Positions 14,606-31,797 of a stretch of 64,000 nucleotides of DNA are shown in pieces. Position numbers and translations under genes: made by a program. The stretch comes from Eledone cirrhosa (taxonomy: Eukaryota), in the NCBI GenBank assembly GCA_964016885.1, contig OZ024740.1, forward strand, positions 90,024,001 to 90,088,000. The letters run 5' to 3'. Under the pieces are notes generated by a model, which was not told the origin of the DNA, did no database searches, and was given only the letters and a program-made list of their open reading frames with translations. The first letter of the stretch is position 1. Every line of letters starts with the position of its first letter.

Positions 14606-14911
14606 AACGTTTTATTTAAAATTGTTGGGTTACAACGAGTAAATATTTTATAACTGATATAAAGCACTCAACAAGTTTTGGAGTAGATATACGATATTAA
14701 ACAAATATGGTTTTATAAATATAGTTTCCATTTGTTTAATATCGTATATATATATATATATATATTGTTATACTTTGGGAGGGTCATGTTGCCAATAAGA
14801 AACACACGCACCAGTTGCTTTCAATTCAATTTATTATATATTTATAAATTTATAAATTTATAAATTTCTGGTTGGTTGGTTGGTTCCACAACCAGATAGT
14901 TGTTTATATAT

Positions 14912-14956
14912 AGTCATAGTTCTTTCGTCACGCACTCTGTGACCTCTTCAGTGACT
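14912..14956 (-). ncRNA. Minimal hammerhead in PLE pLTR
   Basis: Minus strand: agtca-CTGAAGA-g gtcac/gtgac-GAAA-gaac-TA-tgact. Confidence 0.82.
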
Positions 14957-15683
14957 GGGGATTCCTTTCTTTGTTTCTCTGCCTCTCCTTTGTTCTGTCC
15001 TACGCCATTTTGTTTCTGTGAGTGTGTTGTGTGCTCAGTCTGCGCATGCGCCACATCCGGGTGTCTGTGTGTGTTTATGTTCATTTATTTATTTGTTTAT
15101 TTACATTTATTTACACTGGTTGGTTGTTTGTTTTATGTGTGTGTGTGTATTCATTTTGTCCTTAATTGTAAGTTGTGATGTTGCTGTTCCACTCATATTT
15201 TCTATTTAATTTTGGTTGTAATTCATTTATGTTTATTGCCTCTGTAATTTGTCTAAAGATTGCGTCTTTTCTGTGTGTAGATTCTATTTTTATTTCTATG
15301 TTCTCTAATTTACCCTTGTGTTCTATCTTAGCATGTTGGTAGAGTACAGATGATTCTTTATTATCTTGAAGGTCTCGCCAGTGTTCATTTATCCGTTCCC
15401 CTACACTACGAGCTGTCTCACCTATGTACACTATATTTTTGTCTCTACATTGTCATTCAGTACATCTTAAGCTATACACTACATTTCTAGTTTTACAGTT
15501 AATATGGGGGCTTATTTTACAGGTTATACATTTCTTATCTATACATGAGGGTCTTTGAAAAGGGTCTTGCTAATAAGTGTTTTTACGGAGGTACTTGGTC
15601 TTTCTACTATCTTAATATTGAGTTTAGTTTAAGCAACTGGTGCGTGTGAAAGCAACTGGTGCGTGTGTTTCTTATTGGCAACG

Positions 15684-17280
15684 TGACCCTCCCAAAGTAT
15701 AACAATATCGGTTTCAACACACGATTTCAGATAAAGAATCTTGCTAAACAAATTCAGAAACGAAATATCGTAAGCCTTAGCCAGGCTAACAAGATACTGA
15801 AAACCACCTTGTTCTGTTGTCTACGAAAAACCATAACATCTCGACAACTACACTTCATAAAACAATGTGCCTCATCCAGAGTTTACACCAACACCATCAA
15901 CACCGACGTTAGAAGATTACAACTCACCAAAAAACAAGCAGATGTGGTAGGGGCCAGCATAAAACTAACCCTTAAGGAACATATGTTCAAATTTAATGGA
16001 AAAACATATGCCCAAGAGGAAGGAGCAGCCATTGGTGTTAGCATTGCCGTCGACATAGCTAACTTATTCATGGTATGGTGGGACAGTAGACTTAAACTTA
16101 AACTTAAAGAACAATTAGAAGACCCCTTAACCCTGATAATGTACTCCCGCTACGTAGATGATATACACATCGTAGTTAAGACACCCCCACTAGAGAACAG
16201 TCAGGAACTAGAGAAAAACACAATGGAAAGCATCCAGCAAATAGCAAACTCCATCCACCAGAGCATTAGAGTTACTATAGACTACCCAAGTAAACACCCC
16301 AACCATCGATTACCTGTACTAGACACAGAGCTCTGGTTAGATACCATTAACAACAAAAAAACAAATCCTCCATTCCCATTATGCCAAACCCATGACTTCC
16401 AAACATCTGATCCACCGAAACTCGGCCATTTCGGACCATACCAAAATCAACATACTGATTGCGGATTTGGCACGTGTGATGAGAAATGTGTCCCGCATGT
16501 TCAACCCCGAAGAACTAGAGAGACAGATACAACACTTCATCCACCGTATACAGTTCTCTGGCTACAATTAGAGAGATAAAATCAGAGTGTATATAGGAGC
16601 CAGGACAAATTGGGAAAAAATGGTAAATAATGACATAAATGGGACCTGCCACTTGTATAGGAGCAAATTGTTGAATAGAATAGAAAGAACTAGGAACAAG
16701 GCTAATAGAATAAACTCATGGTATGATAGCAATAAATACCATAGTGTAATGTTCATCAATACAACCCCTAGAGGTGAATTAGCTTACAAATTTAGAAGGG
16801 CCCTAAATAAACATAAACTCAATATTAAGATAGTAGAAAGACCAGGTACCTCCGTAAAACACTTATTAGCAAGACATACCCTTTTCAAAGACCCTCATGT
16901 ATAGATAAGTAATGTATAACCTGTAAAATAAGCCCCCATATTAACTGTAAAACTAGAAATGTAGTGTACAGCATAAGATGAACTGAGGGACAATGTAGAG
17001 ACAAAAATATAGTGTACATAGGTGAGACAGCTCGTAGTGTAGGGGAACGGATAAATGAACACTGGTGAGACCTTCAAGATAATAAAGAATCATCTGTACT
17101 CTACCAACATGCTAATATAGAACACAAGGGTAAATTAGAGAACATAGAAATAAAAATAGAATCTACACACAGAAAAGACGCAATGTTTAGACAAATTACA
17201 GAGGCAATAAACATAAAAGAATTACAACCAAAATTAAATAGAAAATATGAGTGGAACAGCAACATCACAACTTACAATTA
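15684..17280 (+). pseudogene. PLE RT/GIY-YIG ORF remnant
   Basis: ORFs 15659-16579 and 16587-16904 plus downstream frames; frameshift at A-run ~16355; N-terminus joined to RT at ~15940. Confidence 0.88.
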
Positions 17281-17481
17281 AGGACAAAATGAAAACACAC
17301 ACACACATAGAACAAACAACCAACCAGTAACATGTAAATAAACAAATAAATAAATGAACATAAACACACACAGACACCCGGATGTGGCGCATGCGCAGAC
17401 TGAGCACACAACACACACACAGAAACAAAATGGCGTAGGACAGAACAAAGGAGAGGCAGAGAAACAAAGAAAGGAATCCCC

Positions 17482-17526
17482 AGTCACTTAAGAGGTCACA
17501 ACGTGCGTGACGAAAAAACTATGACT
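17482..17526 (+). ncRNA. Degenerate hammerhead in PLE pLTR (core CTTAAGA)
   Basis: agtca-CTTAAGA-ggtcac/gtgac-GAAA-aaac-TA-tgact. Confidence 0.7.
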
Positions 17527-17733
17527 ATATATAAACAACTATCTGGTTGTGGAACCAACCAACCAACCAACCAGAAATTTATAAATTTATAAATTTATAA
17601 ATATATAATAAATTGAATTGAAACAACTGGTGCGTGTGTTTCTTATTGGCAACATGACCCTCCAAAAGTATAACAATATTGGTTTCAACACACGATTTCA
17701 GATAAAGAATCATGCTAAACTAATTCAGAAACG

Positions 17734-17949: not shown

Positions 17950-20830
17950 CAATCTGCCGACTTTTTCATAACAGATGTCAAGAATGGTATATATGCGTCC
18001 GGTGTTTTATAATAATAAACAAGAAAAGCGAAACTCGTGGTGGTTTGTACCGAGATGGCGCTCTTTCCACGTTAATGAACCAAAACAATAGTGCCCTAAA
18101 TAGGAATAAGAAAATAATCTTAGATATTTTCAACAATTACTTTCTTAGGTTAGAAATAGGAAAAACAATAGAAAAGCCAACTTCCTAGACACAATGTTAA
18201 CCTCGATTCAGGCCTATACCGTACCATAAACCATACCAGACCATACCCTAAATGAACATCTCAATTACGTTAGCTATAAGTCAAACCGCCATAGAAACAT
18301 TAAGAAGGCCATAGTCGAAATTGTAGAACAGAGAATCTCTAGACTCTCAGCTAACAGGGAAATCTTGGATACTAAGGCTAGATTCAATAATATTGCATTG
18401 GCTAGAGTTGGTTACCAGAATAAAATTGAGTACATATATATAGATAAAAATAGCTACACACCCTCTCATAGAAATAAACAAATCATAGACAAAAACACTA
18501 ACATACACACAATAAATGGCAAACAAAATAATAAGGGTACTTGAAACCCCCAAAATAGATTTAGCACAAATCAGGTTTCAAATAGATATAACTCAAACAC
18601 CACCAAAACGTTACTTAAAAGAGGGTTAAATCCCGCTCCATTCTGTGATATAATCCACCCCACTCCCTTGAAATTCAAAATAACATACCTTGGATTTTCT
18701 TTAACGCATTAGATAGGTGTTTTCCTAGATCACATGAATACAGTCACATTTTTAACAGACACACATTCAAACTTTCTTACTCGACTACAAAATCATGGCC
18801 TAGGATATGGCAAACATTAACAATAGAGATCTGGGAATTAAACATAGGGAAAGTAGCAAAGAAAAACACAGGTAGAGTAAACAGCAACTCGAATAACAGG
18901 GATAACACAATTAACATAGATGAGATGAAACTACGGACACACAGACAGAGGGAAGGAACGACGAATAATAATGTAAATAACTGCAACTGTAGAAATCGTA
19001 ATATTTACCCATTGACTTAAAACTCTTTAGAGGATAATATTGTTTCTGAATGCGAAGTAAAAGCAGGCAATAATTATTATAGTTATATTGGTGCAACTTC
19101 CACTAGATTTAAGGAACGGTGGTACAACCATCACCACAACAGATCTAGTACGGCCCGGTCGGAACTGATTTGGTCGTTGAAAAATAAACAAGTTGAATTC
19201 TCCCTTTCTTGGCAAAAACTCTCACCCGCTTTTCCATACATTAATTGATCTATATCTAAGGGGTGTGACCTATGTACCACAGAGACTCTCCAAATCATAA
19301 ATAGTAGACATAAAGTTATAAATAAACGGTAAGAAGTTCTTCTATTCACAAAATGATCAATACATTTCATAGAGTATTCAATTAAAACTTAAATAAGGTT
19401 AAATAGAGTAATTCAAAATAAGTAATTCAACATTTATTAATATATAGATACAGTATAACTAAGTACAAATATCTAACATTAGAAATAGTATCTAAGTGAA
19501 TTGAATCTAGCATAAAACAGAAAAAAAATAGACTAACAGTTCATACATACTACACTTAGAATTTAATAACCAATCTGGTAACTTGATACCCTAGCCAGTT
19601 CACAAACAGCAGCACCAACTGAAACATTCCTCTCCCACCCATAACAGAACTACTACTGGAAATTATTTCGGACATATGCTCACCGGTCGACAAAGAGAAT
19701 AACTCGTGGGACCGGCAACCTATCAACGTATATTTACAACTCGTATGGATTTTTGGTCTGAAGTGTACACGTAGGGCCGTTGTTATAGAAACACGTACGA
19801 TTTGCATTAACCATCATTTATGGATAAACTTTCAAACTCTAAGTTAAGATGGAGTTATTTATACTTAAGCACATATGACGTCCTGCCCTCTATTCAAATA
19901 TGGGTTTTTTTTTACCGATGATAACACTTAATCTATGTTGGATTTTTACTTTGCTGATTATATTTACTCAACACCTAAACTATATAACACATTAAATTTA
20001 ACACATTGACATTTATTTCCCTGAGCATACTTATTCAACATTATTAACTTTGAATTCTGAGTTCAAATCTCGCCGAGGTAAACTTTGCCTTTCATCCTTA
20101 CGGGGTCGATAAAATAAAGTACCAGTAATACACTGGGTAATTGCTGGCCTTGTGCCTAATGTAGAAATAATTATTAACTTTGAATTCAAATCCCGCTGAG
20201 GTTAACTTTGCCTTTCGTCATTCCGGGGTCGATAAAATAAAGTACCAGTAATACACTGGAATAATTGCTGGCATTGTGCCAAAAGTTGAAACAATTATTA
20301 ACTTTGAATAGTTTGAAAAATAATGGTTTATTTTTCTGACTGAATTACGCAGTCAAATCTTTTATACCCATTATTAAAATCATCATTTGGAGATGTATTT
20401 TCATATTTTCAAAACTGCATTTGCACTGCACACCTGCTCTTATTAACTTTATAAATGTTTGTAATGCTTATGATATATATTAATTTACTCATTATGATAT
20501 ATGCCCTGCACTATAATTAACCTTTCTATAGCAACATGTTTTTTTTTACTTTTAATGCTTTTAACTGCTCCAAATTTTATTGCATTCATATGCTAATATT
20601 TTTCAGATGCTTTTTCCGCTTTTGCTATATTTTTTTATATAAATATTGATACTCATGCTTACTTCCCATATTATGTATCCACCTAATGTTCTTAAGACAA
20701 ACTTCTGATATTATATTTGGGTTTTCACTTTTATTATATACTCCGGTGAAGCCGGCCTTGTCCTATGATGAAACAATCGTAAGTGATTAAATGTTTCAAA
20801 CATTCTTTGATTGTTTTTTATAATGTATTG
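17950..20830 (+). mobile_element. Old Penelope-like element remnant with long 3' region
   Basis: GGLYRDG (YRDD-like), NFLD, LNYVSYKSN..RISRLS, CNCRN..., YIGATSTRFKERWYNH; degenerate HHR-like motif ~20737-20785. Confidence 0.75.
20056..20293 (+). mobile_element. Two head-to-tail 5'-truncated SINE copies
   Basis: Same core as 5121-5299; attattaactttgaat occurs before, between and after the copies. Confidence 0.88.
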
Positions 20831-20833
20831 ATA

Positions 20834-20879
<46 letters not shown>

Positions 20880-21074
20880 CACACACGGTAGTGTGTGAAT
20901 AATATTCTTACAGTCAACTTTTTCCCAACGACAGCCATTTCTAGGACTTGTCACTAATTTAGTTCTCGACCAAATTTGATCAGGTTTCGTGCACTAGAAT
21001 GGACTCATCCCCGGCTACATTTTGGTATGATGAAATTGAAATTTGGGTCAGTAGAAAAAAGTTTCCCTTAATTA

Positions 21075-22253
21075 TAATTATTCACAAAAGGCTTGATGAT
21101 ATTTTGGGAAATCCCCCCAAATGGCATATCCTTTTGGAAAAATGAATCTTCTTTTGTTTGGTGATTTGATGCAATTGCCACTTGTAAATGAAAAACCAGT
21201 ATTTTCTAGAATTTCATCATATGATGCCAAAAGAACAGAAATCGGCATTAGTTTCAATATGATGAGCTAACCATTAATATGAGACAAAAAGAAGACAAAG
21301 ACAACTATGTTGATATTTTGGGAAGAATTAGGATTGGTTCCCCATCAGACTCTGATATTAGCATTCTTCAAAAAAGATGCCTCTTTCCTGATAGAAAGGC
21401 ATTTGTTGAAGAAATTGCTAATAATTGATTGAATTGTATTCTATTCCTGAATTAAAATGTGTATGCATTTTACCTTTGAATGAAGCTGTTGATGAGTTGA
21501 CTAATGAAATTATTAAAATAATGCAACATAAATGCAGTCAAACTTGCTGCAAAAGATTCTGGTATGAGACAAGTAAATGGAAGAAAAAAGAAAAATGTTG
21601 AAAAAGGCAAAAACAAGATAACTTCTGATACTGCTGGACTTGAAACTTTGCTAAATGTTGGAATTGGAGCAAGAGTGATGTTGAAACGAAGCATTGATGT
21701 AGATCAAGGCTTATGCAATGGTGTTATTGGAACAGTTATTGAATTAATTGGGAATGGAAGCAATGATGACAACATTTTGGTGTATTTTGATACCAAAAAG
21801 GACAAACCCATTTCCATTGGAAGAGTTCAAGCAGACTATGAAATTTCTCCTGGTGTTTCTGTCACCAGAACACAATTTCCATTGTCTCTTTCTTACTCTA
21901 TAACAATTCACAAATCACAAGGAATTTCTGTGGATGGAATAATTGCTGATTTAGGAAATCAGATATGTTCTGATGGTCAAGCTTATGTGGCTCTTTTAAG
22001 AGCCAGAACACTTTACGATGTGTATCTCTGTGACTTTGATCCAAGATCATTGATCATGGTTCACAAATCTGCATGGGAAGAGTACAACAAACTACGGGCT
22101 AGTACGGGAAGAGCAGATTTGCCTCCTTTGCCACCTTGCAGGAAAAATCATCATTGCATGGCAAATGTTTCTAGCATGCCCAAGAAAAGAACTAAAAGAT
22201 TTAATTTGGAAGAAAATTCAAACCAACCTGCCAAAAAAGAAGAGAAGAAATGA
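21075..22253 (+). pseudogene. PIF1-family (SF1B) helicase C-terminal half
   Basis: PFGKMNLLLFGDLMQLP, LTINMRQ, GARVMLKRSIDVDQGLCNG, RTQFPLSLSYSITIHKSQG, GQAYVAL. Confidence 0.93.
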
Positions 22254-22284
22254 AAACAGCCAAACTTGAATCCCTAAACATCAA

Positions 22285-23130
22285 TTGATCAATCAAAGAA
22301 ATGCTTGTTTTGCAAATGCAGTTGTGCAATCACTGAATCAATTGCCTGAATGTGTAGAGTATTTGCATAATTTTAACAACATGAATGGAGTACATCAATA
22401 ATTAAGCAATATCATTTTTAATAATCATAATAATGTCTCTAATTTAAGAAGAATAATTGGAGGAAGATTTCATGATGGAAATCATCAATGTGCTCATGAA
22501 TTTTGGAAAGAACTCTCTCTACATTTGGACTTGGTATTTAGAGAAAAACTTCAATTTATTCAAACTGATCATACTAGATGCATCCGATTGCATCAAACAA
22601 ATTGCCAAGCTTTAAATAACAATGTTTTCAATTGTAATTCAAGACCTGGATGTGGTATAGAATCTGAACTTCCGTTTCAAATAAAAGAGGATTTGATATT
22701 AAATCCTATTAATGGCATACAACAATTTAAATCTCTACTTTCAACAACAAATACTTTGACTAAATACTGTGATACTTGTTCTTAAAATACTGAGCATCAA
22801 ATAATTTCAAGGATTGAATTTACTAACGATTTCAAATATCTTGTCATCTCAATTAGTAGAATTCTGCTTAATAATGAAGGAGAACAAAGAATTAATTGTG
22901 ATATTATGAACTTTAGCTAAAAAAAGCAGCAAATATATGGCACACATTTCACTTTAAAAGCTGCTATTCTTCATGAAGGAGTATCATCTACGGCAGGCCA
23001 TTATACTTGTATAGTAAAAAGTGGTGCTGAAAATTGGGATGAAATTAGTGACAACATTATCAAAAAAAGGCACAATAAAGTTCCTCCTAAGTTACCCAAT
23101 GTGGTTGTATTGTTTATGGAAAAAATTTAG
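22285..23130 (+). pseudogene. Ubiquitin-specific protease (peptidase C19) domain with 3 in-frame stops
   Basis: Frame +1: LINQRNACFANAVVQSL (Cys box), HQCAHEF, CDTC, KYLVISISR, LKAAILHEGVSSTAGHYTCIV...WDEISD (His/Asp box), VVVLFMEKI*. Confidence 0.88.
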
Positions 23131-23139
23131 ATTTTTGAT

Positions 23140-23392
23140 TTTGGACTATTGATCTTGGACGACCAACTTATAATTAGGACTACTGTTAATTCTGGACTAC
23201 TTCATTTTGGTTTGGACTACTTGCTGATTACTTTGGACTAAATGCTGATTCTGGACTACTTAATTTTATTTTTGACTACTTGCTGCTTATTTTGGACTAA
23301 ATGCTGATTTTCGACTGCATAATTTTATTTTGGACTAAATGCTAATTCTGGACTACTTAATTTCATTTTGGACTAACTGCTAATTATGGACA
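23140..23392 (+). repeat. Degenerate minisatellite (ttttggact-based units) in the Helentron 3' region
   Basis: More than 12 repeats of tggacta / ctggactact / aaatgctgatt. Confidence 0.8.
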
Positions 23393-23924
23393 AATTATTG
23401 TTGAATTTGAGATCACTGTTTATTGGCATTTTATTTATTTACTACTTAATTTTATTTATTTTTGACTCAGTTATTCTAATTGCTTGTTTTTCTAGCATCT
23501 TTAATAGATGTTAAGTTAAACTCTAAATTGATCATTAGCGTATAGTCAATTATAGCTTTGTCTCTATGGGCACACCTGAAGGCTTGTAGTAAGTGTGTTC
23601 AGAAAAGGCAAATGTCCCTATTGATTATATTCTACAAAATATCTTTTCAATTTTAATATTTTGTATTTTATAGAAATATTGAAATGAAAAATTAATTTGT
23701 ATTGATGAAAAAAGGATTGTAAATGCCTTAGCAAATGGTCAATGTAATTTAAATAAAATAATTTGCTGCAATGTCTTAAAAAAAGGGGGACTAGACCGAA
23801 AGATGCGGGCGCATGTGTATTAATATTCTTAAATAATAATAAACCTGGAAAAGTACAGGACAAATAGAATTAACTCTTAAAATTTTGAAGCTGGAATTTG
23901 AAGTTTGAATTTGATCTTAGAATA

Positions 23925-24959: not shown

Positions 24960-25440
24960 TAGACAAGTGGTATTACGTAAACGTCTTAGGATATTGATTC
25001 TTTTTTCAATTCACAGCCCACAAGATGGATTCCAATTTCCGTATGGTTTAGACTTAGTAATAAATTTCCACTGGAGAGAGTAATCTATGCCTGTGTCCTT
25101 GAAGGACCATACGTGGCTCGCGAGCTTCGTAGATGATCGTTTGTCCGCGTATCTGAATGTCAACCGATGATTAGGGAAGCGTTCCTTAAACCGGCCCTGC
25201 GCCACACCTACATAGGATTTAACCACCTGCTGTTGATTTGGTCTGTTAGAAGTCATCACTGCTTCGTAAATTACAGCATGTGTGTTACATTGTTGTACAA
25301 GGGGACAAGCTTCAGGCATTCGGAAAGAGTATCCTCCGACAAGAGCACCCTCAACAGACACAGGGTGAAACCAGGATACTCCTGTGCTAAGAATATGAAG
25401 GCCTAGATCACCAACAACCCGAAGAGCATCACACCACCAG
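24960..25440 (-). mobile_element. PLE GIY-YIG fragment with 5' inversion
   Basis: Minus 25011-25322 VIYEA..YVGVAQGRFKERF; plus 25335-25440 LNRHRVKPGYSCAKNMKA; same family as 7700-9040. Confidence 0.85.
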
Positions 25441-26244
25441 CGTATTTCATTGTTATTTAATAGAATGTATATATTCCAATGACGGATTTATAAGTATTCA
25501 TATATTTAACACACGTTGCGAAATGAAAGTAAATCCAAGATACAGAATTAAGGGACAAATTATTTCAAGAGAAGAAATAATTTCCGAGAAAGCAACAACG
25601 ATATTTGATACACTATTACATATATGAAATCATATTCAAAGCACTCAATATGTATTCATTCAACCATACACTAGTAAAAATATATGAACATATTTCACAC
25701 AAGATATGTCATAGAATACCAATATAGCTGATAATCAGGAATAGAGCTCCTTGAAAGACAACCGGCGTAAATCTAGTGGGTATAGATAATCATTGAATAA
25801 TGGATATTTCGCATTCTCTAAAATAAAATAGACTCATTGATATGAACCAAGTATAGAACATCTAACTTGGTTCTCACATTAAAGGGAAAATCAACCAACT
25901 GTACTTCAATAACCCACTATATTTGAAGCATATTTCCTGTAGTCTTCATTCCGCACAAAACAAGAAGTTTCTTCTTCTTCTTCTTCTTCTTATTCTTCTT
26001 ATTCTTATTATTATTATTATTATTATTGAATGCCATGGTTGACGGAGGCTCGGCTCTGTAAGGTATAGTAATTTTTAACCGTTAAAACAATTGTAAATTG
26101 TTTAAAACTTGAACCAAATTGTTGATAAAGACACCCTCCTCCTCGTGAGAGGGGTCTTTCTGTCCGTTATTTGGCCCTTCGGGGTTAAATAACCAGTTAT
26201 TGGGGGTTTTGTACCCAAAATTTCATTTTAAACAAAAAAACAAC

Positions 26245-28342
26245 ATGGCTACGAAAAAGAAATTTCATACGTCACTCCCACTCATTCCGTCTTCTTCTTC
26301 CTCAATCATCACTACAGCAGAGAGAAGATTGTCTCTCTCCCTCCCTTCTTTAAATGTGTCTCTCTCCCTCCCTTCTCTTTCGCAAGTGACGAAAGAAAAG
26401 AAAAGTCTCGTGCAAAGCGTGCAAGGTTTCTCCACGACGACGACGACAGCGACGAAACAGGTGTGCGGGAAATACGAAAACCCAGTTCATTCGTCTGACG
26501 TCAGGAATAATAGCAGTAGCAGCCGTAATAACAACTGCAACAGTGACAATGAAAACAACAGTAGCAGCCGCAACAGCATCACCAGCAGCATAAACAACAA
26601 CAGCATTAGCAGCAGCAACACCAACAACAACCACAGCAACAGCGGCGGAGGCAGTAGTCGTAGTACCTGCAGCAACAACAAAAGTACCAGCAGCTCTGAC
26701 GACAACAACAACAGCAGAGAAAAACCAATCTCATTTGCAGGTATTGCGAAAAACTTGGAAACAATCCTCATAACAAATGAGGAATTAGAGGAAGCGAAGA
26801 AGATGGTGACAAAGAACGGACACCGAGCAATCTGCAAGGCAGCGGAAAAATTTTTCAAAACCCAAGAGCACTGTACGGTCACGTACCGTACAGTAAGTAC
26901 AAAATCCCGTAGGGTGGAAAGAGCCACAGAGGCCCAAATACAAAAAGCCTTGGGGTCTGTGTGGCAGCGGAAAACGCACATCACCCGAGGCAAAAAAATA
27001 TGCCACCGTAGACGTACTTTTTGCCACACCCCAGGAGGCAAAGGCCCAATCAGTAGTGACCCTAAGGAGCGAGGAAATGGTGTTGGTGCCCTCCTACTGC
27101 GGGCAAAAAATTGTGAGGGTCAAACTGACCCACGTCCCCCCCGGAATGACCCCTTCTTGGCTGGCCGCGTCTGTCCTAATCGGAATCGAGGACAAAACAA
27201 CTGTACTGCAAGTACAGAAAAAAGTAAGAGAAGATTGGGTCGGCTCCTCCATTGAGATGCTAATCCAAACCAACCAGGAGTGCATCGAAGCTATCCCGGA
27301 TGTGATAGACTTCGATAACGGCACTCAACTGCCCATAAGTGTTGAGGGCAAACGCCCGAAATGCTTTCGCTGTGGATCGAAGACTCACCTCAGGGCCTTC
27401 TGCAACGAGAAGACCCTGAGAAAGGAGAAAACCCCCCTCCTTCCGAATCCGGCTCCACCGCTACCAGCAACAGGACAAGCGGCAACCAGGAACGATAGGT
27501 CCGTGGCACCCATACCCACGCCACGGAAATCAAAAACAGCAGCAGCAGTGGAAATATTAACAACAACAACAGCAATACCAAATGCAGCTGCAACAGAGAC
27601 TCCAGTGCAAACATCACCAACAACAACAAGTGAAAGAGTGGAGCTGGTACCCCTCCCCGACCTCACAGAATCAGACATGGAGTGTGAGGTGGGAGAGGGA
27701 TGGCAAAAGGTCGCAAGAAGGCACAAACGCAGAAGCAGCGCATCGTCGCCTTTGAAAAGGGAGGAAAGAAATGAGAAAAGGGTAAAGTCTACTGCAAAGA
27801 GACCCACAGCAGCAACAACACCAACACCATCACCACCCACACTAGCACCACCATCACCACCGGCGACAACCCCACCGCCAACAACACCTTCAACTCCACC
27901 ACCACAAGCACCAACATCGCAAACACAACAACAAAACACACACACCCAGCAACAACGACAAGAAAATAGCAGAACCACACCCCACCCCCAGAAAAACAAA
28001 TGCACGGCAATAAATACACACAACAAGAAACTAATGACTTACATAATTGAACACACAGACATTTCACAACAGGACTACATAATACCAGCACCAATCAAAA
28101 CGCCAACTAACATAAGACTGCTAAAAATAGCACAGAAACAATACACAAACATTAAAACGAAATTCCCCAACGCAGTTGGTGATTTCAGGGACCTAGGAGG
28201 AACCATCAATCGAAGAGTATACTCAGACATTCTCTTAGAAGAGCCGACGACCAGCCGAAGGGACGATTCAACGGTCCCTTCACCAGACGATCAAGTGAAA
28301 ACGGATGTAAAAACCATCCCTCCTCTACCAAAAGTACGGTAA
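26245..28342 (+). CDS. Tx1 ORF1 (gag-like nucleic-acid chaperone), split by a single-base frameshift in A7 at 26992-26998
   Basis: Removing one A gives HITRGKKYATVDVLF...TLRSEE, matching YLQRGNQYGSVSVLF in the minus-strand copy; knuckle CFRCGSKTHLRAFC. Confidence 0.85.
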
Positions 28343-28377
28343 GTGGTCTTTCCCATCTTTTCCACTCTATTTTAAAC

Positions 28378-31300
28378 ATGACCTCACTCAGAATAGGCAG
28401 CATAAATGCGCGTGGCTTGGGGTCGTCATGGAAGCAGGGTCAACTGCTCAACGACCTCAGGTCACTAAACATAGATGTAGTGGCCATCAGCGAGACCAGA
28501 ATCTCCGAAGCACGGGCCTTCGTACCGATCTTCGGCGGCTACGATGTGTACGCATCTCCCAGCCGTCCTGGATCGGGTGGAGGAGTTGCTGTGCTTTTTC
28601 GGAGAGGTTTGGATCTCGCCATACGGGCCATCTTCCTGGACCCAGAGGGTAAGCTGGTGGTGCTGGACGTGACCAGCGGAGACGGGCAAGCCTTCAGGCT
28701 AGTGGCCGTCTATGCCCCGACAGGAGCAGGGCGGCCTGATTTCTTCCGGCGTCTGGAGACCTTTCTTGGAACGTCCCGCTCTTTAGTGTTAGTGGGCGAC
28801 TGGAACGGGATCTTAGATGCACGCTGGGACTGTGTGGGATTAGCGGATAGGGGTGGAGGGTGCAAGAGCCTCACCAACCTGCTCAGGCGTTTTGAACTGT
28901 CTGACAGGTACCGATTGGATTTCCCGAATGTGCCAATGTGGACTTGGACAAACCGCATAGGGTCATCCAGATCATATCTAGATAGAGTATTTTGTAGGGA
29001 AATAGATAGGTCTAGCATAGGCTGTCCACAATTCAAGATAGTCAGCTACACGGACCACCAATTCGTGACCTGTGTGCTTGACTTAGATAGGCTTCATAGA
29101 CGAGGACCCGGCTACTGGAAGCTAAACGCGTCCTTACCAGCGCGCAAGGCCTACAGAGACCGGATTAGCGAACTAGTTAAGCGGGCGTTGACGGGGGCCA
29201 TCGTCAACAACAAGTGGTGGTTTGCTCTGAAAAGAGCGATTAGAATAGAATCGATTAGGTTTAGTAAGGCTTTAGCAATAGAGAAAAATAGAGCAGAGGG
29301 AGAACTAGTTAGAAAATTAGACGAGGCGCTTAGCAAAGGCATTGCGACCGACGTGCTTGCGGCGAAATTGGCCCTTGACCAATTCTTCAATGCAAAGCAC
29401 GAAGGCTGCGTTGTCAGAGCTAGGGTGCGTGCTCTCAGACACGAGGGGACGAAAGCCGTTCAATGGGCCCGAGTGGCGGAGGCGCGTCGTGGCAACAAAG
29501 CCACGATCCGGTCTTTGGTGGACCACGACGGGCGCATGCTACTCGATCCCGGGCAAATGTGTGAAGCTTTTCAGCGACACTTCGCTCAGCTGTTCGGGGG
29601 CAGCGGTGGGCCGGGTAGAGGGATGGACTTTAGTGTCTACCTCGACGGACTGCCGCGGCTCTCGGCCACTGAGGCGAAGTGTTGCGAAAAGCCGATAACA
29701 GCCGCTGAAGTAAGGGAGGCAATGACTGGCTGCACAAGGGGTAAATCGCCTGGTTTGGATGGTCTGCCCTATGAACTTTACGTACAGATGCCAGACTTGT
29801 TCGGAGGCCTCTTGGCGGACGTCTACTGCAACTGGCAACAGAACGGGAGAATTCCCAGTTCTGTGAGCCGAGGAGCGGTGGCACTGCTGAGAAAGGATCC
29901 GAACAAGGGGGATAACATAGACAATTTCCGGCCCATAACTCTGCTAAACACAGAGTTTAAGATTTTGGCCAAGGTGCTAGCAAAGAGGTTGGCGCTTGTC
30001 GTTGGTGGTCTGGTGGGAGAGGCGCAGACATGCGCCATTCCCGACAGATCCATCCACGACAACCTCCACCTCATGCGATACATCGTAGAGAGGGTAGCTA
30101 GGGAACCTGGCACGGGTGGGTCCTTGATCAATTTAGATCAGTCGAAAGCTTTCGATAGGGTCGACCATCGTTACCTAGCGGCAGTCCTGAGGGCGGCTGG
30201 CTTTGGGCCCGTCTTCAGAGGCTGGATCGCTGCCATGCACAGCGACATCTGCTCTGTGGTGAGAGTGAACGGTCACCTGTCGGAACCGTTCAACATCATG
30301 CGCTCGGTCCGCCAAGGATGTCCCCTCTCGTCCCTCTTGTACGTATTGACTCTCGAGCCATTACTGCACAAACTGGAGACGTTGAGGGGAGTCCCGCGCG
30401 AACTAGGATGCGGAAGATCCGTGTCAGCATATGCGGACGATGTCACCGTAGTGGTGTCGAACGCCAAACACATCGAGGCGATCGGCACTACACTAAGAGA
30501 ATACGAAGCGGTGACAGGAGCAATGATCAACCAGGAAAAGTCAGTGGGCCTGCAGCTCGGCACCTGGAGAGGCAGGTCCATGCCGTCCAACAGCGTCGTC
30601 GGGCGCTGGACGGACGGACCGGTTAAATTGCTAGGGGTCTGGTTCGGTCCGGACCTCCAGACGGACAAAAACTGGGACGAGGTGACGAGCAGGGTGGCTT
30701 CTCTCACCCAGAAATGGGCGGAGAGGAAGCTATCCCTGAAAGGTCGAGCGGAGGTGGCTAACGCGTACATCGCGTCTGTCATCTGCTACCGCCTAACCGT
30801 CGTACCTTGTCCTAAGCCTCGCCTGACTGCGCTGGAGCGTTTGCTCTTTCGCTTTTTGTGGATGGGACGTGCTCCGATGGTCAGGCGGTCCATCTGTTGT
30901 CAACACCCGCTACGTGGAGGGCTGGGCATGCCGTGGCTGATGATGCGCAGGCACGCGCTCAGGCTACGACATCTCCACCTCTTCCTCGACGGTGATCAGG
31001 TGTGGTCGCCGTTTGCTAGACGCGTTTTTCCCCAGCTCGTTTCCTTGACGGAGCTGCAGTCCTGGGTCAAGCGAAGACCGAGAGGGAGCGCCTGGAGACT
31101 GGAATGTCTTCAGGCGCTCACAGCCCTCGACCAATCGGGCAATGTGATCGGTGGAAACTCCACCTCAGCGTTCTATAGAGGATTAGTGGAGGGGAAGAGC
31201 GACGACGTACTTGGGGAAACTCTAGGCGTCGACGAAAATCAACTAGCCAATCTCTTCGGAAGAACTTTCGGGCCAGGGCCTATGGACAACTTCCAGAAAT

Positions 31301-31797
31301 CTCTGGCCTGGCAGTGCTACCGAGGAGCCTTGCCAGTTCGGGATAAACTCTACAGGCATGGAGGTGCCGTCAGCCGGGCATGTCCGAGATGCGCGCAGGG
31401 CGACGAAACCGTCCTGCACGCACTCGTCCAGTGTCCGAAAATTGCTGACTTGTGGGTTTATGTCGAACACCTGCTGTCGCGTTTAGGACGGATCCAGCTA
31501 TCATCTGAGTCTATCGTGAGGATTGCCCCGCCCTCCTCCTTTAGCCGGGAAGGGCAGGCAGTTTTTATCTGTCTGGTGGCCATGGCGAAAGAGATAGTAT
31601 GGTGGACACGTTTGAAAGGGCTGAAGACGAGCACTTACCTCTTCGGTGATGCTCTGATTGACTTTTTCAAATTTCATTTGAAAAGGAAAATCAGAGTAGA
31701 GAAGGAAGTGCTCTCTTCCCAGCATTTTGTTGAAAGATGGGTGAGAGAAGCAAGAATGGCCCGAGTGAATGGGCCGACTCTGAGTATATATCTGTAA
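28378..31797 (+). CDS. Tx1 ORF2: AP endonuclease + reverse transcriptase + C-terminal zinc finger, 1139 aa
   Basis: SINARGL, ISETR, VYAP, VGDWN, SYLDR, TDH; KSPGLDG, FRPITLLN, LDQSKAFDRVDH, RQGCPLS, AYADD, KLLGV; CPRC-x8-HALVQC. Confidence 0.97.
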   Translation: MTSLRIGSINARGLGSSWKQGQLLNDLRSLNIDVVAISETRISEARAFVPIFGGYDVYASPSRPGSGGGVAVLFRRGLDLAIRAIFLDPEGKLVVLDVTSGDGQAFRLVAVYAPTGAGRPDFFRRLETFLGTSRSLVLVGDWNGILDARWDCVGLADRGGGCKSLTNLLRRFELSDRYRLDFPNVPMWTWTNRIGSSRSYLDRVFCREIDRSSIGCPQFKIVSYTDHQFVTCVLDLDRLHRRGPGYWKLNASLPARKAYRDRISELVKRALTGAIVNNKWWFALKRAIRIESIRFSKALAIEKNRAEGELVRKLDEALSKGIATDVLAAKLALDQFFNAKHEGCVVRARVRALRHEGTKAVQWARVAEARRGNKATIRSLVDHDGRMLLDPGQMCEAFQRHFAQLFGGSGGPGRGMDFSVYLDGLPRLSATEAKCCEKPITAAEVREAMTGCTRGKSPGLDGLPYELYVQMPDLFGGLLADVYCNWQQNGRIPSSVSRGAVALLRKDPNKGDNIDNFRPITLLNTEFKILAKVLAKRLALVVGGLVGEAQTCAIPDRSIHDNLHLMRYIVERVAREPGTGGSLINLDQSKAFDRVDHRYLAAVLRAAGFGPVFRGWIAAMHSDICSVVRVNGHLSEPFNIMRSVRQGCPLSSLLYVLTLEPLLHKLETLRGVPRELGCGRSVSAYADDVTVVVSNAKHIEAIGTTLREYEAVTGAMINQEKSVGLQLGTWRGRSMPSNSVVGRWTDGPVKLLGVWFGPDLQTDKNWDEVTSRVASLTQKWAERKLSLKGRAEVANAYIASVICYRLTVVPCPKPRLTALERLLFRFLWMGRAPMVRRSICCQHPLRGGLGMPWLMMRRHALRLRHLHLFLDGDQVWSPFARRVFPQLVSLTELQSWVKRRPRGSAWRLECLQALTALDQSGNVIGGNSTSAFYRGLVEGKSDDVLGETLGVDENQLANLFGRTFGPGPMDNFQKSLAWQCYRGALPVRDKLYRHGGAVSRACPRCAQGDETVLHALVQCPKIADLWVYVEHLLSRLGRIQLSSESIVRIAPPSSFSREGQAVFICLVAMAKEIVWWTRLKGLKTSTYLFGDALIDFFKFHLKRKIRVEKEVLSSQHFVERWVREARMARVNGPTLSIYL

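Follow-up and report, generated by a model that had tools for sequence, protein, structure and literature searches.

A dead Helitron2-type element of Eledone cirrhosa and the ubiquitin-specific protease fused to the transposase of its relatives

The 64,000-nucleotide stretch of Eledone cirrhosa DNA analyzed here (contig OZ024740.1, positions 90,024,001 to 90,088,000; hereafter the window) contains a dead derivative of a Helitron2-type (HLE2) rolling-circle transposon, in whose intact relatives the transposase ends in an in-frame ubiquitin-specific protease (USP) domain. We consider it likely, with a probability of roughly three in four, that this domain serves as a tethered deubiquitinase (DUB), protecting the transposase or clearing ubiquitin at the site of transposition. 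The copy in the window is itself a functionless fossil, a dead deletion derivative, and consists of the following parts (positions are those of the window):

20839..20874, no strand: (TA)n host tract, the insertion site of the element
20875..23911 (about), + strand: HLE2 remnant, family A, non-autonomous; 20 of 20 fetched copies align with it over helicase and USP
20875..20900, + strand: 5' terminus with an immediate hairpin of 10-bp stem; TC in other copies, TA here
20900..20910, + strand: left sub-terminal inverted repeat of 12 bp (family A), paired with a repeat situated 30 nt before the 3' end
21085..22100, + strand: C-terminal half of an HLE2-type, PIF1-type helicase, with stops and frameshifts upstream of 21522
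22100..22281, + strand: basic linker of about 60 amino acids, with a private extra base (+1) and a private stop at 22267
22282..23130, + strand: USP/C19 deubiquitinase domain, pseudogenized; Cys 22306, His 22999, Ser 23047, Asp 23050
23138..23394, + strand: GGACTA-type minisatellite 3' of the ORF, varying between copies
23790..23911, - strand: the element's own 3' terminus, repeated internally in inverted orientation; the copy in the window ends where this arm ends

The initial annotation had placed a USP domain with retained Cys, His and Asp codons behind a PIF1 helicase, and both translation and Pfam agree with it: the codons TGT (22306), CAT (22999) and GAC (23050) share one frame in a three-frame translation, and the Pfam UCH profile matches both ends of that frame (E 8e-4 and 7e-7). 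The Asp, which had been called catalytic, is indeed retained, but it ranks as the fourth critical residue: Ser-Asp comes after the His box, and Ser 23047 of this pair holds the canonical third position. According to the accessible text of PMC10867860, this third residue is Asp, Asn or Ser in USPs, with the adjacent Asp conserved, and Ser occupies it in the active enzymes USP16, USP30 and USP45. Because several homologues also have Ser-Asp, we do not regard this pair as a product of decay. The three reported stops were located at 22399, 22783 and 22918, ahead of the end stop at 23128, and an additional one lies in the linker at 22267, where 17 of the 18 other aligned family-A copies read TTA. 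The stop at 22399 is private to the window, while those at 22783 and 22918 recur in 1 and 7 of the 18 others, respectively; the catalytic residues are kept in 18 (Cys), 15 (His) and 17 (Asp) of these copies.

Upstream of the USP domain, the PIF1 assignment holds for what is left, but the helicase is reduced to its C-terminal half, itself broken, and the replication initiator (Rep) domain is missing. The window copy retains its 5' end and has lost Rep and the first half of the helicase to deletion, including an additional 5' deletion relative to other family-A copies. What remains is about 50% identical to an intact protein of the related family B (see below) from residue ~1570 on, and Pif1_2B is matched by Pfam in the ORF at 21522-22253. 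The 5' hairpin, with a folding energy of about -10 kcal/mol (DNA parameters), is preceded by ATC in 19 of 20 family-A sequences and by ATA in the window. At its other end, the copy stops at 23911 without the last ~1 kb (the spacer and the true 3' end), for which no second location was found within the window; the terminal arm at 23790..23911 is 93-94% identical to both arms of another copy (L055). Further mobile elements are visible in the same window. Fragments at 14900-15620 and 15650-17600 lie in an inverted "tail" arrangement and are presumably Penelope-like, judging by reverse transcriptase (RT) and GIY-YIG motifs, and more GIY-YIG fragments occur at 19021-19330 and 25011-25487. A LINE at 26149-31797 has a broken ORF1 and an unbroken ORF2 (28183-31797) that encodes a 1,204-aa endonuclease-RT. 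Finally, two SINE-like fragments of ~120 bp stand in tandem at 20054-20300; the repeat to which they belong abounds in the fetched loci and inserts into the AT-rich arms of the element as well.

In the 3.0-Gb genome, the USP DNA of the window has at least 43 matches (a lower bound, with 40 of 48 candidates scored), the near-full-length ones being 91-97% identical, and in view of these matches the helicase-USP arrangement is not a chance juxtaposition. The helicase half lies upstream of the USP in all 20 fetched copies. Among 14 family-A copies with paired ends, 12 measure 4,070-4,573 bp and two are longer (7,466 and 8,863 bp); the long copies L025 and L032 retain Rep together with helicase and USP. 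The shared termini are a 5' TC with hairpin (19 of 20) and a 3' GCATTTTTCGGTCTAG (14 of 16). The frameshift that had been noted between helicase and USP is real in the window, but private to it: the frame across the linker is kept in 12 of the 18 other copies that could be aligned (2 of the 20 were dropped for missing anchors), and 9 of the 18 are stop-free from the helicase into the USP. None of 19 family-A copies has an unbroken USP; each carries 1-7 frameshifts and diverges by 0.8-3.2% from the column majority, and the column-majority codons contain no stop over ~690 codons. With pN/pS values within the family of 0.85 for the USP and 1.29 for the helicase, family A is dead and has been decaying neutrally, and its copies would have been produced in trans, partly from a master that was already broken.

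Searching the genome with the helicase revealed three further related families, making four in all (A-D). In family B, seven loci have unbroken frames of 2,230-2,245 aa, each with a helicase and a whole USP; the single Rep-Hel-USP ORF that the initial annotation had suggested looking for among intact copies thus exists naturally. Three of these ORFs, examined at full length, are 98.7-99.5% identical. In the one ORF that was scanned, the Pfam domains above the cut-off are, in order, DUF6570 (572-704, E 2e-17), Helitron_like_N (807-996), PIF1 (1459-1656) and UCH (1967-2228); UCH is terminal, and no Exo_endo_phos match, which would mark an AP endonuclease (EN), was found in this ORF. The HUH, YxxxY (Y2 Rep) and helicase motifs are all intact. 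The 5' and 3' ends of family B yielded 786 and 775 first-look candidates in the genome, numbers that do not equal copy numbers, and the 40 scored for each end are 98-100% identical; copies fetched without selection are mostly derivatives of 3.5-3.8 kb. Judging by this identity and the intact frames, family B is likely still mobile. Family C keeps the USP, with one stop in copy C13, and in family D three copies have lost most of it, from which the domain may be dispensable.

Several features of individual family-B loci deserve mention. Near the N-terminus of the transposase (ORF L067:556-7290, residues ~75-185) there are basic, helical repeats of ~17 aa, which have no Pfam match and are reminiscent of STPR repeats. 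At 136.47-136.49 Mb of contig C28 (L146/L147), a family-B derivative sits cleanly inside the 5' region of another family-B copy in the opposite orientation, and three further insertions (L148, L154, L159) have flanks that match other fetched loci; nested insertion appears to be common. Two insertions 14.7 kb apart (L097/L098, at 371.635 and 371.650 Mb of contig C3) have identical 5' flanks within a tandem array, together with which they were probably duplicated.

The family-B USP, which is 40% identical to that of the window, was modeled with AlphaFold (pLDDT 92.7, from a 36-sequence alignment), and its best Foldseek match is USP21 (E 7e-19, TM 0.77). Matches to USP21, 12, 14, 46 and 2 have E-values from 1e-17 down to ~1e-18 at 15-19% identity, and phmmer finds USP15 (E 2e-4); the domain is thus predicted to fold as a USP with a Cys/His/(Ser or Asn)-Asp center. 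With cellular USPs such as USP21, USP12/46, USP2 and USP30 (PF00443), which we take to be MEROPS family C19, it shares the predicted fold, the Cys and His boxes, a Gln-Asp-Ala-like box (QQCAH in this case) and the finger cysteines. It differs from them in its 15-19% identity, in its compact size (~285 aa, without accessory domains), and in the pair after the His box, which is Ser-Asp in families A and C and Asn-Asp in B. The dN/dS comparison that had been proposed gave 0.21-0.25 for the USP when family A was set against family C (6 copies, with dS close to saturation) and 0.40-0.54 against decayed subfamily copies (6 comparisons). For the helicase in the same A-C pairs we obtained 0.12-0.17, the USP values being mostly higher; comparisons of B with A and with C were left out, as their dS is saturated. 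Purifying selection has therefore acted on the USP between families, and the domain was functional in autonomous lineages under a constraint weaker than that on the helicase. In a tree of 87 USP domains, 34 of them with helicase sequence, the fused domains do not form one clade and deep support is weak; we therefore claim neither a donor nor a single origin for the USP.

All four families have the same end layout: a 5' TC with hairpin and a 3' GCATTTTT followed by 3-5 nt and CTRG. In 4 of 4 families, each judged from one copy, sub-terminal inverted repeats of 10-13 bp are set back by 25-29 nt at the 5' terminus and by 30-34 nt at the 3' terminus. Folding energies range from -1.7 to -5.2 kcal/mol for the last 70 nt and from -10 to -21.5 for the 5' ends, and a strong or GC-rich hairpin near the 3' end is absent in the four families. 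Insertion occurs between A and T (A-T target), as seen in 13 of 14 family-A insertions and in 21 of 22 of family B, the latter count having a 5' base biased by the query. Empty sites, counted without two matches against diverged paralogues, comprise eight matches without duplication, one of them with a CA left flank, which ruled out a TA target-site duplication. One family-C insertion (L060) has an 11-bp sequence on both sides and 8 bp of filler, while the joints elsewhere are clean A-T.

In addition, the last 140-213 bp recur in every family as an inverted copy, located about 0.95-1.1 kb farther upstream. Within one element the two arms are 95.7-99.5% identical; across families the figure is 88% for C against D, A shares 26-35 matching bases with C/D, B has no match, and the spacers are unrelated; high identity within elements and low identity between families indicate that the arms evolve in concert. 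Family-B copies retain them in 29 of 30 and 19 of 19 cases, and both are present in 13 of 16 family-A copies. The spacer between them was found flipped in 0 of 30 family-B and 0 of 15 family-A copies. A standalone MITE derived from the 3' segment was considered for family B and rejected, since in 29 of 29 cases one and the same element-internal sequence flanks the inner arm.

Beyond Eledone, the best 120 of 273 homologues include 24 with PF00443, 37 with OTU and 3 with an endonuclease, and in all 16 tested of the 24 flagged proteins UCH is C-terminal to PIF1. No lungfish or axolotl protein appears among the named minority of these 120. We built a Rep-Hel tree with FastTree (126 sequences, 1,031 columns, 2 dropped as short), rooted it on four HLE1 frames of the same genome and assigned USP labels from a profile of the USP columns only. 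The four families form one clade, nested in a clade of 97 sequences (SH-like support 1.0) that is sister to the group holding the proteins with EN or VTD. Of these 97, 34 end in USP, 35 in OTU and 2 in both; in 2 more the only OTU is N-terminal, and for the remaining 24, some of them truncated predictions, no C-terminal DUB was detected. Outside the clade, USP was found in 0 of 29 sequences and a C-terminal OTU in 3. As kin share labels, these counts do not represent independent events; USP and OTU nevertheless occupy the same slot in several subclades. Four proteins, P0067 and P0070 (Bemisia), P0066 and P0068, have two tandem USPs, or a USP and then an OTU, behind the helicase. Three Helitron transposases labelled as bacterial MAG proteins (P0001, P0105 and P0107; Gammaproteobacteria, Ca. 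Thiodiazotropha) are likely contamination from animal hosts. Among 26 metagenome loci examined out of 80 fetched, 13 have a C-terminal OTU and 1 a USP, and none has the 3' motif of the Eledone families, most contigs ending early. At one metagenome locus (L210:9189-9425), a 237-bp imperfect palindrome lies ~1.4 kb 3' of a USP-fused Helitron ORF and is possibly analogous to the 3' inverted repeat. In viral contigs, 22 pattern matches contained no relative.

With regard to classification, the element is HLE2 by protein. In the family-B ORF, Rep (HUH, Y2) lies upstream of PIF1 (in the window copy it is deleted), the HLE2 marker DUF6570 is present, and the protein groups with those bearing EN or VTD, far from the four HLE1 frames. 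The initial proposal of a rolling-circle lineage with a USP where Helentrons have their endonuclease is borne out, in that this HLE2 protein has its USP C-terminal to the helicase; its Helentron-like label is not, since EN is absent and the clade is a separate one. The ends are mixed: the short asymmetric terminal inverted repeats are an HLE2 trait, the target is A-T instead of the T-T usual for HLE2, to which the proto-Helentron is the exception on record, and 5' TC, 3' CTRR, A-T insertion and lack of duplication are those of HLE1. The short GC-rich hairpin that in HLE1 stands just ahead of the 3' end is missing, and the transposase is not of HLE1 type, with 21-26% identity to the HLE1 frames of this genome and a long branch.

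A catalogued architecture was among the refuting conditions that the initial annotation had set, and the claim of novelty is mostly refuted, USP cargo of HLE2 being already known. In the accessible parts of the HELIANO study (Li et al. 2024, PMC11417382), UCH/PF00443 is listed among stably captured domains and enriched in HLE2 subgroups c and d, mostly of lungfish and axolotl, which resemble our families in their HLE2-type RepHel, DUF6570, UCH and lack of endonuclease. UCH is counted there among the domains in separate ORFs, in contrast to the in-frame fusion here. The same source reports proto-Helentron ends only from Phytophthora, with none seen in 404 genomes. As described in the text available to us, the proto-Helentron of Phytophthora infestans (Thomas et al. 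2014, PMC4067079; PMC11417382) shares with our families an EN-less HLE2 protein, 3' CTAG, A-T insertion without duplication, a 5' stem-loop and short inverted repeats. It starts with TT instead of TC, has its left repeat 3.6 kb inside instead of at 25-29 nt, and carries SET/TIR cargo, as opposed to a USP and a long 3' inverted repeat in an animal-type genome. The Helitron2 elements FoHeli1-5 ("HLE2-reverse") of Fusarium oxysporum (Chellapan et al. 2016, PMC5148889, accessible sections) have the same 5' hairpin at the start and asymmetric inverted repeats, of which the 3' one lies ~20-50 bp from the end, and FoHeli3-5 likewise lack a 3' hairpin. Their termini are ATTTT or CTCCTGT, as against GCATTTTT, 3-5 nt and CTRG, and those sections describe neither a USP nor a long 3' inverted repeat. 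Transposase-DUB fusions are also found in the Helentrons that carry AP endonuclease, OTU and VTD (Herpes_teg_N) domains (PMC9741609). They differ in DUB class and position and in TT insertion, and EN/VTD proteins fall outside the 97-sequence clade.

Our searches of open-access literature turned up neither an in-frame RepHel-USP fusion nor proto-Helentron ends in animals, and no account of the long 3' inverted repeat; the supplementary figures of HELIANO may bear on all three points; the portions seen of PMC13282606, PMC12001565, PMC6431247 and two preprints contain nothing on a USP fusion or such ends. To the literature searched, this work adds the in-frame fusion (where HELIANO, as far as its accessible text goes, has a separate ORF), a C-terminal slot filled by USP or OTU across one clade, TC-plus-hairpin to CTRG ends at A-T, a layout otherwise reported from Phytophthora only, and the inverted copy of the 3' end ~1 kb inside all four families.

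How such an element would move can be sketched by analogy. Following the known Helitron mechanism, Rep would nick the ends and the helicase would unwind them, and the window family may have spread in trans, an autonomous transposase recognizing its ends, in part at a time when the family's own USP was already broken. The long 3' inverted repeat could fold the displaced strand into a panhandle and may replace the missing 3' terminator hairpin; its conservation is what suggests a role as terminator or origin. We tentatively put forward, at somewhat below even odds, that these families are a currently active animal lineage with a third type of Helitron end: an HLE2 transposase with HLE1-like TC...CTAG ends and A-T target, a 5' hairpin, a self-maintained 1-kb 3' panhandle acting as terminator or second-strand origin, and a clade-wide need for a C-terminal DUB, USP or OTU interchangeably. 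If this is true, ends of the proto-Helentron type are not peculiar to Phytophthora, and annotation tools that rely on structure wrongly file such elements under HLE1.

As to the USP itself, the DUB may remove ubiquitin that signals degradation or repair; the analogy is with the VTD DUBs of zebrafish Helentrons, which, in the accessible text of PMC9741609, are active on K48 and K63 chains, transposon OTUs being untested. It could instead act on host proteins or chromatin at large, such as ubiquitinated histones and silencing factors, against transposon silencing; the closest folds are the host enzymes USP21/12/46/2, the linker is basic and NLS-like, and the same paper, in the part available, speculates on germline counter-defence. 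We consider this unlikely: at 15-19% identity to host USPs, fold rank is uninformative about the substrate, and fusion to a DNA-bound transposase would favor local action. Less probable still is that the domain cuts a Rep-Hel-USP polyprotein, as had also been proposed, or removes a ubiquitin-like modifier other than ubiquitin. Such readings draw on the one long ORF with its flexible linker and on the fact that some USP folds, with USP18 among our fold matches, cut ISG15, whereas the intact protein contains no [LR]RGG, GG occurs in only 4 of 31 linkers at no shared position, and the fact that USP and OTU replace each other in one slot suggests that what they have in common is the removal of ubiquitin. 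That the helicase-USP piece is passive cargo, either a host USP retrocopy or an HLE2 fragment caught by an HLE1 element that supplied the TC...CTAG ends, would suit the HLE1-like ends and target and the HLE1 elements present in this genome, but is very improbable and already contradicted by the same ends around Rep, helicase and USP in L025 and L032, by the shared end layout of intact family B with family-specific end sequences, by recurrence of the fusion in proteins of Rhodnius, Nasonia, Bemisia, Cyamophila and Prorops, by the purifying selection on the USP, and by 0 of 106 USP matches being of the host-gene kind (by eye, in a loose first look).

Helitrons have acquired at least three unrelated DUB classes: OTU, VTD and USP. 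The hybrid ends of the families described here blur the HLE1/HLE2 definitions used by annotation tools. Family B offers natural transposases that are unbroken and 99% identical, its ends are defined, and candidate short derivatives number in the hundreds; the role of the DUB is therefore testable by a single point mutation in a transposition assay.
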